In this document: one piece after another, positions 18,418 to 25,588 of the stretch
How the letters are laid out: each line of letters opens with the position of its first letter
How positions within the stretch are numbered: position 1 is the first letter of the stretch
Assembly: GCA_038229915.1 (NCBI GenBank)
Contig: JBBRNY010000001.1
Coordinates: 33,693-97,692, forward strand
Direction: 5' to 3'
DNA length: 64,000 bases
Source of the DNA: Candidatus Kapaibacterium sp.
GTDB taxonomy: Bacteria; Bacteroidota; Ignavibacteria; Palsa-1295
The notes under the pieces: model-generated
The model's input: the letters and a program-made list of their open reading frames with translations, nothing else
Told to the model about the DNA's origin: nothing
Database searches by the model: none
Position numbers and translations under genes: made by a program

Positions 18418-20586
18418 TTGCATATTGTACATCGAAACCCTATGACTATTAAGACGATCGTGTTTGTGTTTGTGCTGGCTATTGCCTTTGGCGCAGTGTT
18501 TTATAATACTCGCCGATTGCTCGATTTCCTGCGTATCGGCAAGTGGACCAACCGCTTCGATAATCTGGTCGAGCGCTTCCGTCGCACATTGGTCATAGCC
18601 ATCGGGCAGACGAAGATCTTCCGCGATCCCGTTGCCGGACCGGTTCACGCCTTTATTTTTTGGGGCTTCATCGTCTTGCTCGCCGCTGTGATCGAGTCTA
18701 TCGGCGAAGGGCTGATGGGTCGGTTTTCGCTGTCGTTTTTGGGTGGTGCGTATTCTATTATTACGGTTTCGCAAGATATTTTTGTCTTGCTGATAGTTGC
18801 CTCGGTCGTTGTTGCATGGTGGAGACGGACTGTTTCGAAAGTCAAACGCTTACAAGGTGATAAGCACGAGAAGCTTGATGCACAGGTCGTGCTCTATACT
18901 ATTGGCTTGATCGTCGTGTCATTAACGATGACAAATGCTGCTCGTATCGCAACTGGTGGTATCTACCCGAACGAAGTTCGCCCCCTTGCCTCAGGGATAG
19001 CGAGTTTACTTTGCAGTTGTTCAAGAACCGCGACAATGGGTGAAGTATTTTGGTGGGTGCATATTATTAGTGTGCTCGGCTTTATGAATTATCTGCCATA
19101 CTCGAAGCACTTACACGTGATGACGAGCATCCCAAATGTATTTCTCTCCGATCTCAAACGCAAAAATTACCTCAAGCCGATCAACTTCGAAGATGAATCG
19201 CTCGCCCAATATGGTGTGAAGGATGTCGAAGATATGAGCTGGAAGCAGTTGTTCGATGGCGACACGTGTACACATTGCGGAAGATGTACTTCGGTCTGCC
19301 CGGCAAACTCGACCGGAAAAATTCTTGATCCAAAATGGATCATCATCGCGACACGTGAGCGCATGCTTGACAAAGCACCGTATCTCGTTGCCGAACAGAA
19401 ATTTGGTTTTGATTCGTGGGAATCAGGGATGCAATCGGCATGGTCGGGCGGAAGTTATGCCGGCACGTCCGCAAATTTGCCACCTGCAACAGAAGTAAAA
19501 CATTCAGAACCAACAGCACTGCTCGGCGCAAAACCGAGAATGAGTAAAGAAAACGTCGAGCAAAAGCAATTCATCGGCGACTATATCCCTGCCGAAATGC
19601 TCTGGCAATGCACAACGTGTCAGGCCTGTATGCAAGAGTGCCCTGTGATGATCGAGCACGTTGATGTCATCGTTGATCTACGCCGAAATCTGGTGATGAT
19701 GGAAGCAAACTTCCCGCCTGAGCTACAGCCGGCATTCAGCTCGATGGAAAATAATTTTTCGCCATGGGCATTCAGTCCAAGCGAACGTGCCGACTGGGCA
19801 GAAGGTCTCGGCATCGAAACAATGGCAAGCTACACCGCAACAACTCCTGAGCCGAAAGAAGATCTGGTGCTTTTCTGGGTTGGTTGTGCAGGTTCGTTCG
19901 ATGCTCGTGCGAAAAGTATTTCTCGTGCATTTGCGGAGTTAATGCAGATAGCCGGTATCAACTTTAAGATTCTCGGCACCGAAGAAAAATGCACCGGCGA
20001 CCCGGCGCGTCGTATGGGCAACGAGTATCTTGCACAGACACTGATCAAAGATAATATCGAGACGCTCAATCGCTATAACATCAAAAAAGTAGTTACGACG
20101 TGTCCGCATTGTTTTAATGCGATCAAAAACGAGTGGGGCGATTTCGGGGGCAACTATGAAGTCGTTCATCATACTGAGTATGTCGCAGAGCTTCTCGAAA
20201 AAGGCAATCTTGTTGTCACCGGCGATCTCAAAGAACGCGTGACCTATCATGACTCTTGCTATCTCGGGCGCTCGAATGATATTTATGATGCCCCTCGCGC
20301 GGTGCTCGAAAATATTCCGGGTCTGGAGATCATCGAGATGGATCGCAATAAATCGCGCGGTATGTGTTGCGGTGCAGGCGGCGGACAAATGTGGATGGAA
20401 GAAACGCAAGGTAAGCGCGTCAATATCGACCGCACCGAAGAAGCGCTCGCAACCGAAGCCACAACGATCGCCTCAGCTTGCCCATTTTGTATGACCATGA
20501 TGACCGACGGCGTAAAAACAAAAGACCAAGCCGACCACGTTCACGTCAAAGATATTGCGGAGATATTGTTGGAGGTGGTGAGGTAG
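18418..20586 (+). CDS. membrane-bound (Fe-S)-binding oxidoreductase, HdrD/GlpC-like with N-terminal polytopic domain
   Basis: About 250-aa N-terminal domain with several TM segments and conserved His. Two ferredoxin-type motifs (CTHCGRCTSVCP, CTTCQACMQECP) and two CCG-type Cys-rich domains (TTCPHCFN, CCGAGGG). Confidence 0.8.
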   Translation: MHIVHRNPMTIKTIVFVFVLAIAFGAVFYNTRRLLDFLRIGKWTNRFDNLVERFRRTLVIAIGQTKIFRDPVAGPVHAFIFWGFIVLLAAVIESIGEGLMGRFSLSFLGGAYSIITVSQDIFVLLIVASVVVAWWRRTVSKVKRLQGDKHEKLDAQVVLYTIGLIVVSLTMTNAARIATGGIYPNEVRPLASGIASLLCSCSRTATMGEVFWWVHIISVLGFMNYLPYSKHLHVMTSIPNVFLSDLKRKNYLKPINFEDESLAQYGVKDVEDMSWKQLFDGDTCTHCGRCTSVCPANSTGKILDPKWIIIATRERMLDKAPYLVAEQKFGFDSWESGMQSAWSGGSYAGTSANLPPATEVKHSEPTALLGAKPRMSKENVEQKQFIGDYIPAEMLWQCTTCQACMQECPVMIEHVDVIVDLRRNLVMMEANFPPELQPAFSSMENNFSPWAFSPSERADWAEGLGIETMASYTATTPEPKEDLVLFWVGCAGSFDARAKSISRAFAELMQIAGINFKILGTEEKCTGDPARRMGNEYLAQTLIKDNIETLNRYNIKKVVTTCPHCFNAIKNEWGDFGGNYEVVHHTEYVAELLEKGNLVVTGDLKERVTYHDSCYLGRSNDIYDAPRAVLENIPGLEIIEMDRNKSRGMCCGAGGGQMWMEETQGKRVNIDRTEEALATEATTIASACPFCMTMMTDGVKTKDQADHVHVKDIAEILLEVVR

Positions 20587-20648: not shown

Positions 20649-21173
20649 ATGAGCAATTACTACCAACACAAACTATCTGCCGGTGAGCATAATGTTGTTG
20701 TTGCAATTTCGGATACGGAGTGTGGCAAGTTATTTGCCAATGATACTCGGAGTGATATTGGATCCGAAGCCGAGAAAATGAAATTTGCCAATAGTATAAA
20801 TGGTCTTGTTGTTCAATTCATACGACTCGATCATGATGAGACAACCGGTTCGGATATGATCGTTATGGAGCGGCTTTACCCAATGGATTTCAGAAGTATT
20901 GAAGTCGAGAAACGCGAGTTGATTTTTGAGGTGTTTGAATATGAGCTGGCGCAACTCCATAGCGCGGGTTTCGCTCATCACGACCTCAAGCGCCCACACT
21001 CGGAAAAAGGTGAACCATACGATAATATTTTTCTGACTCAGACAGGTATTCGCCTCATTGATGTCGGCATTTCAGTCTTGCGATCACAAGTAGGGAACAA
21101 ACTCTTTGATCGATATTTTGAAGAAGAGATGAAAGAACTTACCGAGTTCAAAAAGTATTTTATAGAACGATAG
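20649..21173 (+). CDS. minimal protein-kinase-like (Bud32/RIO/Kdo-kinase-like) protein
   Basis: 174 aa. Hinge-like MIVMERLYP, catalytic-loop-like HHDLK....DNIFL, and DVG where kinases have DFG (IRLIDVG). Confidence 0.5.
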   Translation: MSNYYQHKLSAGEHNVVVAISDTECGKLFANDTRSDIGSEAEKMKFANSINGLVVQFIRLDHDETTGSDMIVMERLYPMDFRSIEVEKRELIFEVFEYELAQLHSAGFAHHDLKRPHSEKGEPYDNIFLTQTGIRLIDVGISVLRSQVGNKLFDRYFEEEMKELTEFKKYFIER

Positions 21174-21577
21174 TAATCCCCGATCTATTATATATTTCCT
21201 ATGACTAAATCTACCGCCAATAAAAACACGGCGCACTGAGGCGAGTATCGAAGATTTCTAAACACGTTTCTCGACCCACAACGTCGGGCTGATTGTTTTG
21301 CGGTTGCAAAGATGATGGAAGAGGTCACGAAAACCAAAGATGTGGGACACGAGCATTGTTGGTGCTCAAAGAACTGATACAATACAGGATCTCCTACTTA
21401 TCGAAAATGTACAAACAATAATATTGGCATCCATTTAGACCAATATTCATTCCTCCTCAACGAATAAGCAATTCCAAAGAACAACTGAATGAATCACTCT
21501 GGGTTTACTCGGAGTATATCACTTGTGTGATAATAATTATCGCACAACATTCATTCTTTATCCTCGGAATTACTAAT

Positions 21578-22813
21578 ATGAAAACTTTGATACGATTTCT
21601 CTTTTGTGCCACGCTCTTTTATGCCGTCAGTAGCCGGGCACAATGGCATAGTACCCCATCCGGAACGACAGAAACATTTTACGGATCTGCATTTGCCGAC
21701 ACCAACACTGCCTACCTTGCAGGTTGGGATATCAATGGGGCATCGATCTATAAAACAACCGATGGTGGTGAGAGCTTCTCAAGCTCTTGGCATGATGAAA
21801 CCGGATTTTTTATCTTCGGTGTCCATGCTACCGATCCGCACAGTGTGATTGTCTCGGGATACGACCCTACTTGCGGTTGTGCATTGTTATTACAAACCTA
21901 TGACGACGGAATAACTTGGACTAACAGCACATTCTCTTCTTCATTTGGCTTTTATTCGATCGAACAAACAGACCCTACAACATTTCTTGCCGCTGGTTAC
22001 AACGGGAAAATTCTCAAAACCGTAAACTCCGGTAAATTCTGGAGCGAGGCAACCACTGGTACTGACACATTGATCTTTCGTTTTATGAGTTTCGGGGATG
22101 TAAAAACGGGATACGCCCTTGCCGGAACTTTGCCTACTCTTTTTGATAAGATCTTTAAGACGACCGATGGTGGATCAACATGGGCACTACAAAAAGATTT
22201 TGCTTCTACACGCAGTCTCGGCGATATCAAATTCATCGATGCCCAGACGGGATTTTATGTCGGCTCGGATGGACAAGACGCCATTTATAAAACAACCAAT
22301 GGCGGAAGCAGTTGGAAACGCGTGTATCATGGCACCGAATCAACAAGCGTAATGATCGGTATTCGTTTTCAAAACGCCATGGTCGGTTACGCCGCTAACC
22401 AAGGTGGCCGAGTACTAAAAACGACTGATGGCGGAGATCATTGGGTAAGTTCATCCTTCAACGACGGAGTACAATTTGGTACGCTTGCGGTCTCAACAAA
22501 TGGCAAAGTTCTTGCCGCAGGGGTCGATGGAGCCACCTATACAAATTCACTTTCTGCTTCGGTATTCATACCAAAGACCGCAGACAAAGACTATTTCGTG
22601 AGAATCGATGCAAATAAACTATTGGTAGTCGACGATAACGAAGATCAGATCACCGAGATCATCATTCATGATATTTTGGGCAGAGAATTAATTCGTAAAA
22701 ATATGACAGACTCACACGAAATCTCCCTAGCATCGCTTCACAGCGGCACATATTTTTGGAATACGCTTCATAATGGACAAGAGTACTCCCACGGTAAAGT
22801 GATAGTTGAGTAA
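21578..22813 (+). CDS. BNR/Ycf48-like repeat protein with T9SS C-terminal sorting domain
   Basis: Signal peptide MKTLIRFLFCATLFYAVSSRAQ. Four Asp-box repeats (YKTTDGGESF, FKTTDGGSTW, YKTTNGGSSW, LKTTDGGDHW). C-terminal roughly 80-aa T9SS type-A CTD (...EIIIHDILGRELIRKN...GTYFWN...). Confidence 0.8.
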   Translation: MKTLIRFLFCATLFYAVSSRAQWHSTPSGTTETFYGSAFADTNTAYLAGWDINGASIYKTTDGGESFSSSWHDETGFFIFGVHATDPHSVIVSGYDPTCGCALLLQTYDDGITWTNSTFSSSFGFYSIEQTDPTTFLAAGYNGKILKTVNSGKFWSEATTGTDTLIFRFMSFGDVKTGYALAGTLPTLFDKIFKTTDGGSTWALQKDFASTRSLGDIKFIDAQTGFYVGSDGQDAIYKTTNGGSSWKRVYHGTESTSVMIGIRFQNAMVGYAANQGGRVLKTTDGGDHWVSSSFNDGVQFGTLAVSTNGKVLAAGVDGATYTNSLSASVFIPKTADKDYFVRIDANKLLVVDDNEDQITEIIIHDILGRELIRKNMTDSHEISLASLHSGTYFWNTLHNGQEYSHGKVIVE

Positions 22814-22940: not shown

Positions 22941-23360
22941 GTGACAACTATGAATATTATGAACGACAAAAAAGCATTTACCGAAGAAGAGCTCCGCCAA
23001 CGTTTGACACCGACGCAGTTTCATGTTACCCAAGAAAAGGGCACAGAACGGGCGTTTACTGGCGAGTATTACGATACAAATACCCCTGGGATCTATAATT
23101 GCATCGTCTGCGATACACCGCTGTTTGCCTCGGAGACGAAATTCGATTCCGGTTGCGGCTGGCCCAGTTTTTATCAACCTACAAAAGATGTCGTAGTCAC
23201 TGAGCATGTTGATCGTTCATTCGGAATGATCCGAAAAGAGATCGACTGTGCAACCTGTGGCGCACACTTGGGGCACGTCTTCGATGACGGACCACCGCCG
23301 ACAAATCTCAGATATTGTATCAACTCTGCATCGTTACAATTTAAACCGACCCAATCGTGA
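22941..23360 (+). CDS. msrB: peptide-methionine (R)-S-oxide reductase MsrB (cytoplasmic copy)
   Basis: Two CxxC zinc motifs (CIVCDTPLF, CATCGAHLGHVFDDGP) and the catalytic RYCINSASL. Confidence 0.9.
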   Translation: MTTMNIMNDKKAFTEEELRQRLTPTQFHVTQEKGTERAFTGEYYDTNTPGIYNCIVCDTPLFASETKFDSGCGWPSFYQPTKDVVVTEHVDRSFGMIRKEIDCATCGAHLGHVFDDGPPPTNLRYCINSASLQFKPTQS

Positions 23361-24361
23361 TCTATCGTTCGAAGAATAGAGCACTGCTCCAAAAAAAGGA
23401 AGCTACGCCCACACCCAAAGCAGTCGAGGCACCCGAACTTGGTTTCGGCAATCGCCCGAGTGTGCGAGGCCAGAGACTGGTCAATCAAAATGGGGCGTTC
23501 AATATTACTCGTATTGGCGAAGAAAAGAATCTTCTCAATAATGCATTCCATCAGATTCTTTCGATGGAGTGGGGCAGATTTTTTGGAATGATCTTAATTG
23601 GATTTTTAGTCACCAATATTATTTTCGCCTTTATCTATATTAACTTAGGGGTTGAGAATTTACAAGGAATGATCGGCACATCATTTCTCGATCAGATCAG
23701 CGAAGCATTTTTCTTTAGTACACAAACGCTGACAACACTGGGTTATGGGCGCATCAGCCCCGTAGGTTTTTCAACAAGTTTTGTGGCTTCGATCGAATCA
23801 ATGCTTGGCTTGCTCGCTTTTGCGATGGCAACAGGTTTGCTCTACGGACGCTTCTCGCACCCGGAAGCAAATATTCTTTATAGCAAGAATGCTCTGTTCG
23901 CGCCGTATCACGATGGTGTAGGCCTAATGGTCAGGATGGCAAACGGCAGACGCAACCAATTGATCGAGCTTGAAGCACTGGTTACTCTTGCCAGAAATGA
24001 GATCATTGATGGAGTAAACAAACGGAAGTTTTATGTGCTACCGCTTGAGCTTACAAAAGTATCAGTGTTAGCATCAAGTTGGACGCTGGTGCATCCGGTC
24101 ATCGAAGGCAGCCCATTCTTCGGAATGACATTCGATGAGATCAACGAAAGTGATGGAGAAATACTCGTGCAAATAAAGGCCTACGACGAAACGTACTCGC
24201 AAAATGTCTATTCACGTAGCTCGTTTATGGATGATGAAATTATCGTCGGCGGAAAATTTATCTCGGCAGTATCAGTTGATGAGCAAGGGCACTCGGTGCT
24301 CGATCTGAGGATGATCAGCGATTACGAAATCGTCGAAGTGCCGATAGCACGTAGCGCTTAG
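23357..24361 (+). CDS. inward-rectifier-type potassium channel (KirBac-like)
   Basis: Two TM helices with a pore TLTTLGYG selectivity-filter-like motif, and a C-terminal cytoplasmic beta-rich (IRK-C-like) domain. Overlaps the msrB stop by 4 nt. Confidence 0.75.
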   Translation: MIYRSKNRALLQKKEATPTPKAVEAPELGFGNRPSVRGQRLVNQNGAFNITRIGEEKNLLNNAFHQILSMEWGRFFGMILIGFLVTNIIFAFIYINLGVENLQGMIGTSFLDQISEAFFFSTQTLTTLGYGRISPVGFSTSFVASIESMLGLLAFAMATGLLYGRFSHPEANILYSKNALFAPYHDGVGLMVRMANGRRNQLIELEALVTLARNEIIDGVNKRKFYVLPLELTKVSVLASSWTLVHPVIEGSPFFGMTFDEINESDGEILVQIKAYDETYSQNVYSRSSFMDDEIIVGGKFISAVSVDEQGHSVLDLRMISDYEIVEVPIARSA

Positions 24362-25017
24362 GCCATCAACAACACCTGATCTACCAGCGCTTTGATGCCA
24401 ATGAAGACCTCGTTGAGCGGAGCTTCGTCGTACATATATGCCGGTGTGGTGACGATCTTATGTGCCGCATCAATATGAATTTCACTTGGCTTGGTTTCGA
24501 AATGAATGTGCCCCATTTTGCGAAGCTCCTCCGCTTCGGGTCCGTCGGCTCCGAGGGTGAGTTCGAGCTTCTCGCCTTTGAGTGCAAGCCCAACTAATGC
24601 CGGCGCGATACACACAGCACCGATCGGCATTCCATTGCGATAGGTTTGTTTTATTGCTTGTTCGAGTTCGCGATAAAGAATTTTTCCGCCGGCGCCTTCG
24701 GTTGCAAACGTGCAAAGATTTTTTGCCACGCCGAAACCACCTGGCATAATCAGAGTATCATAATGCAGATCGGATAGTTCGGAAAGCGGTTTGATCTTGC
24801 CCCGAGCGATGCGAGCTGATTCGACAAGAATGTTGCGCGTTTCGCCGACAGCTTTGTTGGAGTAGTGGTTCATTACTGATAATTGTGGCGCATCGGGCGC
24901 AAAGATCTCCACCATGACAGGGTGCTGACTCAATGCCCATAAGACACCAACTGATTCGCGGATCTCGGCACCATCTAAATACCCACAACCTGAAAGGATA
25001 ACGGCAACTGTTTTCAT
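24358..25017 (-). CDS. elbB: DJ-1/PfpI-family protein ElbB (glyoxalase-like)
   Basis: MKTVAVILSGCGYLDGAEI...IMPGGFGAAKNL...VCIAPAL...IVTTPAYM aligns closely with E. coli ElbB. Confidence 0.85.
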   Translation of the reverse strand: MKTVAVILSGCGYLDGAEIRESVGVLWALSQHPVMVEIFAPDAPQLSVMNHYSNKAVGETRNILVESARIARGKIKPLSELSDLHYDTLIMPGGFGVAKNLCTFATEGAGGKILYRELEQAIKQTYRNGMPIGAVCIAPALVGLALKGEKLELTLGADGPEAEELRKMGHIHFETKPSEIHIDAAHKIVTTPAYMYDEAPLNEVFIGIKALVDQVLLMA

Positions 25018-25087
25018 TTTTTCTTTTTTGACAAATCTGATACAGCACTAAACTTTGTATATCATATAGTAAGTTTCTGATAAAACA

Positions 25088-25588
25088 ATGAAATCAACAA
25101 GAATAAGACCAATAGCGATTGCCATCGTCCTTCTTATCAGCACGACGATCGGCTGTACTCGCGCCAAGACTGAAACCATCATCGGCGACACGACGCGCAC
25201 CAAACAACATTTTAGCGACGACGATCTTCGTAAACGCCTCACCAAAGAGCAATACGAAGTGACCCAACACAAAGGCACCGAAGCATCGTATTCGGGAAAG
25301 TATTGGGACAATCACGAAGAAGGAATATACTCGTGCATCGTCTGTGGCACCAAACTGTTCGATTCGAAAACAAAGTTCGAATCAGGCACCGGCTGGCCAA
25401 GCTTTTTCAAACCGATCTCCACTTCAGCAACAAAGAACATTTCCGATAACGGCTACAACATGACGCGCACCGAAGTAACCTGTGCTACGTGCGGCTCGCA
25501 TCTGGGTCACGTCTTCGATGACGGACCGCAGCCAACCGGCTTGAGATATTGTATGAACTCCGCTTCGCTGGATTTTAAGAAGCGATAA
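25088..25588 (+). CDS. msrB: MsrB paralogue with lipoprotein-type signal peptide (exported copy)
   Basis: N-terminal MKSTRIRPIAIAIVLLISTTIGC lipobox, followed by the same CxxC / CxxC / RYCMNSASL MsrB core. Confidence 0.85.
   Translation: MKSTRIRPIAIAIVLLISTTIGCTRAKTETIIGDTTRTKQHFSDDDLRKRLTKEQYEVTQHKGTEASYSGKYWDNHEEGIYSCIVCGTKLFDSKTKFESGTGWPSFFKPISTSATKNISDNGYNMTRTEVTCATCGSHLGHVFDDGPQPTGLRYCMNSASLDFKKR

Follow-up and report, generated by a model that had tools for sequence, protein, structure and literature searches.

Introduction

RIO, Bud32 and OspG/NleH are minimal enzymes of the protein-kinase-like (PKL) fold with a truncated C-terminal lobe (C-lobe). Bud32 lacks the canonical infrastructure for substrate recognition and hydrolyses ATP under stimulation by its partner (PMC8565320); OspG is activated by a ubiquitin-charged E2 enzyme, E2~Ub (PMC11078946). 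A 2007 survey of the microbial kinome defined 20 PKL families; the inserts described in the available part of that survey are placed at VIa/VIb, at II/III or in the activation loop, and that part mentions neither a catalytic-loop insert nor the family reported here (PMC1821047). Here, we analyse a gene encoding a 174-aa protein of the same minimal architecture, hereafter the mini-kinase, in a 64-kb stretch of DNA from Candidatus Kapaibacterium sp. (contig JBBRNY010000001.1, positions 33,693–97,692), which we refer to as the window.

The mini-kinase would work like the minimal kinases and is a member of none of their families. The explanation that we hold with moderate confidence, taken whole and including its mechanism, is that the gene product is a cytoplasmic, stand-alone, minimal enzyme of the PKL fold; its most likely chemistry is, on balance, the partner-dependent phosphorylation of a protein on Ser or Thr. 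A first-pass annotation of the window had read the gene as a minimal small-molecule or lipid kinase, or as a pseudokinase; the minimal kinase-like fold stands, and we rate both functional proposals below a protein kinase.

Predicted fold of the mini-kinase

The reading frame coincides exactly, in position, strand, length and ATG start, with that of the first-pass annotation (Table 1). The only overlapping frame, an antisense open reading frame (ORF) at 20730–20999, is short and unsupported as a gene. The protein is hydrophilic and acidic (pI 5.2), and direct reading of its sequence finds no signal-like segment at the N-terminus. The motif strings that had first suggested a kinase, MIVMERLYP (residues 70–78), HHDLKRPHSEKGEPYDNIFL (110–129) and IRLIDVG (134–140), are present in the order described.

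The 174-aa protein has no Pfam match, even at E ≤ 10, and searches of the PDB sequences, with the single sequence and with a profile hidden Markov model, return only E values of about 0.4–1.4. Sequence alone is therefore indecisive, and comparison at the level of structures and of profiles is needed. An AlphaFold2 model built from a 30-sequence alignment (mean predicted local distance difference test score, pLDDT, 88.7; predicted template modelling score 0.83) comprises, in order, three β-strands (residues 8–11, 15–19 and 24–29), a helix (34–50), two strands (57–63 and 68–74), a helix (86–105), a coil (110–126), two strands (127–130 and 133–136), a short helix and a long helix (150–173). It has the bilobal organization of the PKL fold, with an N-terminal lobe (N-lobe) of five strands plus αC, a hinge, a catalytic loop and β7–β8, and its sequence carries the full set of canonical ATP/Mg ligands, namely the β3 Lys, the αC Glu, the catalytic Asp, the loop Asn and the DFG Asp. 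In structural comparison, Rio1, Rio2 and RIOK3 match best, and Bud32 follows closely.

In the profile-profile comparison, the family profile was aligned by hhalign with four bona fide Hanks kinases from a single locus (L090) at a probability of 90% and E = 1.4e-6. Specifically, E40 pairs with the αC Glu, M73-E74 with the hinge, G-F-A-H110-H-D112-L-K114 with s-F-L-H-R-D-I-K, N126-I-F-L with N-I-Y-I, and R-L-I-D138-V-G-I-S with M-L-I-D-F-G-A-S, and the alignment stops about 10 residues past DxG. Weak PF00069 matches are found in 24 of 30 family members (best E 1e-5), and among the curated models, that of the Bud32 domain matches the 174-aa protein best (E = 1.7e-4).

The kinase fold is confirmed by both comparisons. 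A chance ORF whose motifs resemble a kinase by coincidence would account for the lack of a Pfam match, and we give this possibility next to no weight. It is refuted by the at least 1742 homologues, by the (near) invariance of the motifs among 186 unique sequences, by the predicted fold with its structural matches, and by the register of the hhalign alignment.

The first-pass annotation was wrong on one structural point, the N-lobe, which it had described as drastically shortened. In the model the N-lobe is complete, with β1–β3, αC, β4 and β5 at residues 8–74, and the truncated part is the C-lobe, in which only 36 residues follow D138 and form one long helix. The activation segment, the APE motif and the αF–αI block are absent. 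Within the C-terminal region, F153, E160, F167, F171 and R174 are invariant. Few stand-alone proteins of protein-kinase fold are smaller than this one, at 174 aa.

A comparison of the same model with the viral structures in BFVD returned generic kinase matches only. At or near the top stand segments of nidovirus and torovirus replicase polyproteins 1a/1ab (TMq up to 0.71, 172 columns); Ser/Thr kinases of giant viruses and a 'RIO-like' kinase of a cyanophage are among the matches as well. The polyprotein matches probably reflect compact kinase-like domains in those polyproteins.

Conservation and distribution of the family

The homologues, nearly all of 172–176 aa and 60–78% identical over their full length, were found in a search of 5.8 billion proteins with a cutoff of E ≤ 1e-3. 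When representatives at 50% identity were scanned exhaustively with HMMER, only 209 clusters were found at the same cutoff, which indicates a compact family with a sparse halo at 30–45% identity and no gradual bridge to the long canonical kinases. Among species-representative genomes, at least 474 species carry the family. The closest carriers are Kapabacteria (72–75% identity), and the others include Ignavibacteria, metagenome-assembled genomes of Chloroherpetonaceae/'Chlorobiota', Saprospiraceae/Lewinellaceae, Chitinophagaceae and Cytophagales/Spirosomataceae (for example, Larkinella, Spirosoma, Nibrella and Rhodocytophaga). The phylogenetic distribution, a check that the first-pass annotation had singled out, is thus that of a Bacteroidota-group family. 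Identity to the two nearest genomes (72–75%) is in the range of the flanking housekeeping genes in the same two genomes (FeS-CCG oxidoreductase, 77–79%; MsrB, 75–76%; M42 peptidase, 74–86%), and the family is under strong purifying constraint.

Among the 186 unique sequences of the core family, K27, E40, H110, G121, D125, N126, R135, L136, I137, D138, G140 and S142 are invariant, D112 is present in 180 (97%) and R115 in 184. Position 114 is variable (K in 103, R in 45, S in 10 and C in 8). The replacement of the DFG Phe by Val that had been noticed earlier holds, V139 being found in 168 of the 186. The hinge residues M73, E74 and R75 are kept in 185–186 sequences, L9, S10, G12 and N15 of the nucleotide-binding loop in 184–185, and V17 in 183. 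The most conserved stretch of the protein is D32-T-R-S-D-I-G-S-E40-A-E-K-M-K-F-A-N48. When 52 distant relatives (24–49% identity) are added to the alignment, the positions kept in at least 90% of them include K27, E40, E74-R75, N126 and D138, the ATP/Mg-binding set. This pattern suggests that nucleotide binding is conserved and that the core clade keeps a catalytic base as well; since K27, E40, N126 and D138 are invariant and D112 is kept in 97%, ATP/Mg binding appears to be retained and catalysis is probably retained.

The same data bear on whether the protein is a nucleotide-binding pseudokinase or scaffold, in which ATP would be a structural or allosteric ligand and the insertion would have disabled phosphotransfer. 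Such a reading draws on the position of the insertion, exactly where the spacing from the catalytic Lys to the Asn is normally fixed, on the variability of K114 and on the dispensability of the HxD Asp in some relatives. In a rough neighbour-joining tree, the core clade is tight and short-branched, and its nearest outliers are three singletons (P0124, P0129 and P0134) that have lost D112, D138 or N126. Against the pseudokinase stand the complete conservation of K27, E40, N126 and D138, the 97% conservation of D112, the retention of the catalytic base alongside the metal ligands, which is atypical for pseudokinases, and R115, which adjoins K114 and could take the role of the Lys. We consider a pseudokinase improbable, the least probable of the functional alternatives, and an active kinase remains the preferred reading. 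The three singletons are metagenomic, with the degraded motifs HRKLYD, IDMSRA and LMHVEIS and with YSS replacing DN; each may represent a pseudokinase offshoot, or the degradation may be an error of sequencing or assembly.

The expanded catalytic loop

In the canonical motif HRDLKxxN, two residues separate the Lys from the Asn; in the mini-kinase, eleven residues lie between K114 and N126, which gives a net insertion of nine (about residues 117–125). The first-pass annotation was right that an insertion displaces the Asn, and its size, given there as 11, is corrected to nine. The insertion is real, as judged by the 9-column gap that canonical kinases show in the hhalign alignment. Its length is constant throughout the core family, with G121 and D125 invariant, and among the distant relatives the spacing of the loop ranges from shorter than that of the core to about 12 residues longer. 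In the model the region is coil, with a pLDDT of 79 for residues 111–120. The lowest internal pLDDT (77) falls on residues 31–40, which suggests that the β3–αC loop is a mobile functional loop. The assignment of residues 9–17 as a putative G-loop follows from their position in the predicted fold.

Table 1. Features of the mini-kinase gene, in window coordinates
Feature	Position	Strand	Basis or remark
Mini-kinase gene, complete, stop codon included	20649..21173	+	ATG start; 174 codons (174 aa)
Putative nucleotide-binding (Gly-rich-type) loop, L9-S-x-G12-x-N-N15-x-V17	20673..20699	+	Joins β1 and β2; single Gly
K27, β3 Lys (VAIK equivalent)	20727..20729	+	Present in 186/186; in strand 24–29
β3–αC loop and start of αC, D32–N48; E40 is the αC Glu	20742..20792	+	Conservation; hhalign
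End of β5 and hinge, M73-E74-R75-L-Y-P78	20865..20882	+	Aligned to the Hanks hinge VM(D/E)Y
Expanded catalytic loop, H110-H-D112-L-K114-R115-P116 ... D125-N126	20976..21026	+	hhalign: HHDLK = HRDIK; N126 = Asn of HRDxKxxN
Family-specific 9-residue insertion, H117–D125	20997..21023	+	9-column gap in canonical kinases (hhalign), between K-P-G and N
β8 and metal-binding motif, R135-L-I-D138-V-G140-I-S142	21051..21074	+	Aligned to LIDFGAS; DFG Phe replaced by Val
Single long C-terminal helix, residues 150–173	21096..21167	+	DSSP of the model; all of the C-lobe that remains after DxG

Comparison with known kinase families

Membership in the RIO or Bud32 families is rejected, as neither the model cutoffs nor the defining inserts of these families are matched. 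For RIO (PF01163), there is no Pfam match, and the NCBIfam Rio1 model gives E = 0.072 and 12.5 bits against a cutoff of 480. The RIO-specific N-terminal helix and II–III insert are absent, β1 starting at residue 8 and only 12 residues separating K27 from E40. RIO kinases are archaeal and eukaryotic and have a canonical HxDLSxxN catalytic loop, in contrast to the Bacteroidota-group distribution and the 9-residue insertion of the present family. For Bud32/PRPK (TIGR03724, the KEOPS kinase/ATPase), the score is 21.2 bits, and the cutoff is 125. Bud32 occurs universally in archaea and eukaryotes and is not bacterial; its catalytic loop is the canonical HGDLTxxN, its C-terminal tail is functional, and it is tied functionally and genomically to Kae1/TsaD, whereas the present family is bacterial, has an expanded loop and shows neither Kae1/TsaD nor any other neighbour in more than 8 of 84 loci.

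The closest alternative chemistry to protein phosphorylation is partner-stimulated ATP hydrolysis. The mini-kinase would then be a switch of the RIO/Bud32 type that hydrolyses ATP without stable phosphotransfer and thereby drives or licenses a step of a conserved complex, either a ribonucleoprotein or an enzyme complex. The proximity of Rio1, Rio2, RIOK3 and Bud32 among the structural matches is consistent with this account, as is the rank of Bud32 among the curated sequence models, and very high conservation without an operon partner would suit a universal, slowly evolving machine. The essential activity of Bud32 is an ATPase stimulated by its partner and by tRNA (PMC8565320). We regard such a switch as unlikely, although it stands first among the alternatives to the protein kinase that we favour.

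OspG and NleH (PDB 4q5h and 4lrj) share the minimal architecture, and 142–144 residues align in the comparisons with NleH1 and OspG, target chains of only 160–169 residues. PDB sequence searches detect no sequence similarity between these proteins and the 174-aa protein, and we know of no catalytic-loop insertion in OspG or NleH. Both are type III secretion system effectors that enteric pathogens use inside host cells, whereas the mini-kinase is encoded by a chromosomal gene of free-living Bacteroidota and has no secretion signal.

Hanks kinases (PF00069, PknB-like) give the most frequent weak Pfam match and have the αC Glu, hinge, HRD, Asn and DFG in register with the family; like FHA and PP2C genes, they are co-operonic with distant relatives. 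The best-scoring family relative nevertheless reaches only 26.6 bits against the PF00069 gathering cutoff of 31.7. The Hanks activation segment (DFG...APE) and αF–αI have no counterpart in the 36 residues and one helix past D138, the fixed HRDxKxxN spacing is broken by the nine residues inserted between K114-R-P and N126, DFG is DVG, and the Hanks kinase domain is about 270 aa long rather than 174.

In a further alternative, the insert and the β3–αC loop would form a pocket for a lineage-specific metabolite, cofactor or envelope lipid, making the protein a small-molecule or lipid kinase. Weak matches to APH occur in 5 of 30 members (E ≥ 0.008), the invariant or nearly invariant polar residues R115, D125 and those of the DTRSD loop could bind a small polar substrate, and such a role would also fit a gene that stands alone among varied metabolic neighbours. 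Yet the 174-aa protein has no match to APH/ChoK (PF01636), Kdo (PF06293) or YrbL (PF10707), and the Kdo, YrbL and fructosamine-kinase models give none at E ≤ 10. In the available part of the kinome survey, the known small-molecule kinases (APH, ChoK, HSK2, MTRK, FruK and KdoK) carry an insert that lies between VIa and VIb, and they bind their substrates through a helical region at the C-terminus (PMC1821047); here that region is absent, a single helix following DxG. No metabolic neighbour is conserved, and the relatives lie in protein-signalling operons. We therefore judge a small-molecule kinase distinctly unlikely, and continue with a protein kinase as the working interpretation.

Distant relatives and their gene contexts

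Nine distant relatives could be placed on contigs, the operon-linked ones at 30–40% identity. Four lie in FHA/PP2C phospho-Ser/Thr operons (three with VWA-FHA), two in phage DNA and three elsewhere. P0159 (Arcobacter-type, L090 955–12810) and P0152 (L100 1328–9783) share an operon order, Trypsin-FHA-FHA, a coiled-coil protein, VWA-FHA, mini-kinase, Hanks kinase(s) and PP2C, and in both the start of the mini-kinase gene overlaps the stop of VWA-FHA. P0150 (L093 387–5538) is upstream of VWA-FHA and PP2C. P0135 (Spirosoma-type, L087 1–10394) lies among FHA, PP2C, caspase-like and PrsW/FHA-like genes, and no Hanks kinase is found in 12.5 kb, so that the mini-kinase may be the only kinase of this cluster. 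FHA domains read phosphothreonine, and PP2C phosphatases erase phosphoserine and phosphothreonine. Operons with VWA, Ser/Thr kinase, FHA and PP2C genes have been described as phospho-signalling modules (bioRxiv 10.64898/2026.01.23.701218), and linkages of kinase, PP2C and vWA have been noted in conflict-type systems (PMC7159879).

The two phage-type relatives, P0179 (L099 8001–8531, on a 256-kb contig) and P0163 (L101 5872–6429), are in apparent large-phage genomes, surrounded by dozens of small ORFs without Pfam matches and adjoining proteins of ~1400 aa that match the phage-only phrog_30979 (E 1e-76 to 1e-83) and phrog_35244. Among 50,697 deposited phage genomes, no homologue of the 174-aa protein (tblastn) or of a phage-type relative was found, and the PADLOC and PHROGs models do not match the 174-aa protein.

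Of the remaining three, P0145 (L094 300–6131) directly follows three tandem ~530-aa paralogues (AAA_22/AAA_35, STAND-like ATPases) in a region dense in PIN/PhdYeFM, DUF4160/DUF2442, nucleotidyltransferase and Uma2 genes, as is typical of a defence or toxin–antitoxin island. Behind P0142 (L097 560–2793) come two small genes, of 242 and 234 aa, that match APH/Pkinase faintly, and the locus is a tandem array of divergent mini-kinase-like genes. P0128 is a stand-alone gene. P0150 and P0152, both operon-linked, and P0168 carry an N-terminal extension of ~25–40 aa with CxxC...CxxC, resembling a zinc ribbon, which Pfam does not recognize. The longer relatives contain no recognizable domain fusions.

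Genomic neighbourhood of the core clade

All ORFs within 5 kb of the gene were clustered for 84 core loci. No neighbour family occurs in more than eight loci, and those eight belong to one clade. No FHA, PP2C, VWA or Hanks-kinase gene is found within 5 kb at the 84 loci or anywhere in the 64-kb window, and the core clade is uncoupled from the signalling systems of its distant relatives. Guilt by association therefore fails for the core clade. A role in toxin–antitoxin systems or defence is rejected for it, given the lack of a partner gene and of a PADLOC match.

As the first-pass annotation noted, a BNR-repeat gene with a type IX secretion system (T9SS) C-terminal domain lies downstream. It encodes a 428-aa BNR/Ycf48-like protein (PSII_BNR, 4.5e-12) whose Por_Secre_tail match, 24.6 bits, is just under the cutoff. 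The gene occupies 21527–22813, and a palindrome with an 11-bp stem (21523–21547) overlaps its predicted GTG start. In the two closest Kapabacteria genomes, FeS-CCG, mini-kinase, MsrB and a Kir-type channel follow one another without a BNR gene, which indicates that the BNR gene was gained or lost locally. A functional coupling to the T9SS BNR gene is rejected on account of this absence from syntenic relatives, and the lack of any conserved neighbour likewise marks the arrangement as incidental.

The upstream gene (18418–20586) encodes 722 aa and ends 62 nt before the mini-kinase; its product, which is heterodisulfide-reductase/DsrMK-like, is a fusion of a 4Fe-4S dicluster and two CCG domains to a multi-pass membrane domain at the N-terminus. 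The mini-kinase directly follows the FeS-CCG gene in Kapabacteria, where co-transcription of the two is possible; at many loci outside this group, the gene has a Bacteroidota-type −7 element of its own. The only shared upstream motif found is the generic Bacteroidota −7 element TAnnTTTG, at about 15 of 79 loci; a sigma-70 scan of the window gave nothing, and the gene flanks contain no Rfam families or repeats. Further downstream (22941–25588), two MsrB (SelR) paralogues surround an inward-rectifier-type K+ channel gene (IRK_C + Ion_trans_2, 23357–24361), whose start overlaps the stop of the first MsrB gene; the MsrB–Kir pairing is kept in the two closest genomes. The second MsrB (25088–25588) has a lipoprotein or signal-like N-terminus.

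Discussion

We propose that the mini-kinase binds Mg-ATP in the canonical orientation, would be catalytically competent, and acts on, or together with, a specific macromolecular partner, by analogy with RIO, Bud32 and OspG/NleH. Such dependence on a partner or substrate would follow from the lack of an activation segment and of the αF–αI substrate platform. The residues that link the catalytic Asp to the Asn face the phospho-acceptor of the substrate in canonical kinases, where the N-terminus of αC abuts the activation segment. From this general architecture, the best candidates for a partner or substrate surface beside the γ-phosphate are the insert (R115, P116, G121, Y/F124 and D125) and the DTRSDIGSE loop, and the insert may replace the missing substrate platform. 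If the target protein is conserved, the family as a whole would be expected to evolve slowly, as it does.

Several observations weigh against this proposal. All curated kinase models score the 174-aa protein and its family below cutoff, D112 is replaced in six of the 186 core sequences, and both the HxD position and the length of the insert vary among distant relatives. The insertion might disturb the geometry of phosphotransfer, and the spatial role given to it derives from general kinase architecture. The link to protein signalling comes from distant paralogues only, and the core loci add neither a conserved neighbour nor a signalling gene to it.

A broader joint reading is possible, which we put forward tentatively. 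The core would be the slow-evolving, domesticated branch of an undescribed 'mini-kinase' superfamily of ~170–200 aa, in which an expanded catalytic loop replaces the activation segment. Other branches would, on the same speculative footing, serve as dedicated kinases in large phages and in operons for VWA-FHA-PP2C signalling or conflict. The core protein of Bacteroidota might then phosphorylate a conserved housekeeping target through a mode of recognition unseen in studied kinases.

The family has no coverage in Pfam, NCBIfam, PADLOC or PHROGs. Some database records name its members 'serine/threonine protein kinase' or 'protein kinase domain-containing protein', and the fold assignment itself is therefore not new. 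Our search of the searchable literature found no description of the family, its architecture or the contexts of its relatives, all of which appear to be undescribed so far; what appears to be new is a family-level variant of a known fold, with that architecture and those contexts.

Minimal kinases such as RIO, Bud32 and OspG/NleH have been informative about the catalytic needs of the fold and about the ways in which partners make up for missing parts. The spacing of the catalytic loop is nearly fixed across the superfamily, and a nucleotide-bound structure of a protein with a conserved 9-residue insert at this site would test the tolerance of the core. The family is strongly conserved in many environmental Bacteroidota-group lineages and absent from curated family databases and model organisms. 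With its relatives, VWA-FHA-PP2C operons and large phage genomes would gain a small kinase component that has been overlooked.
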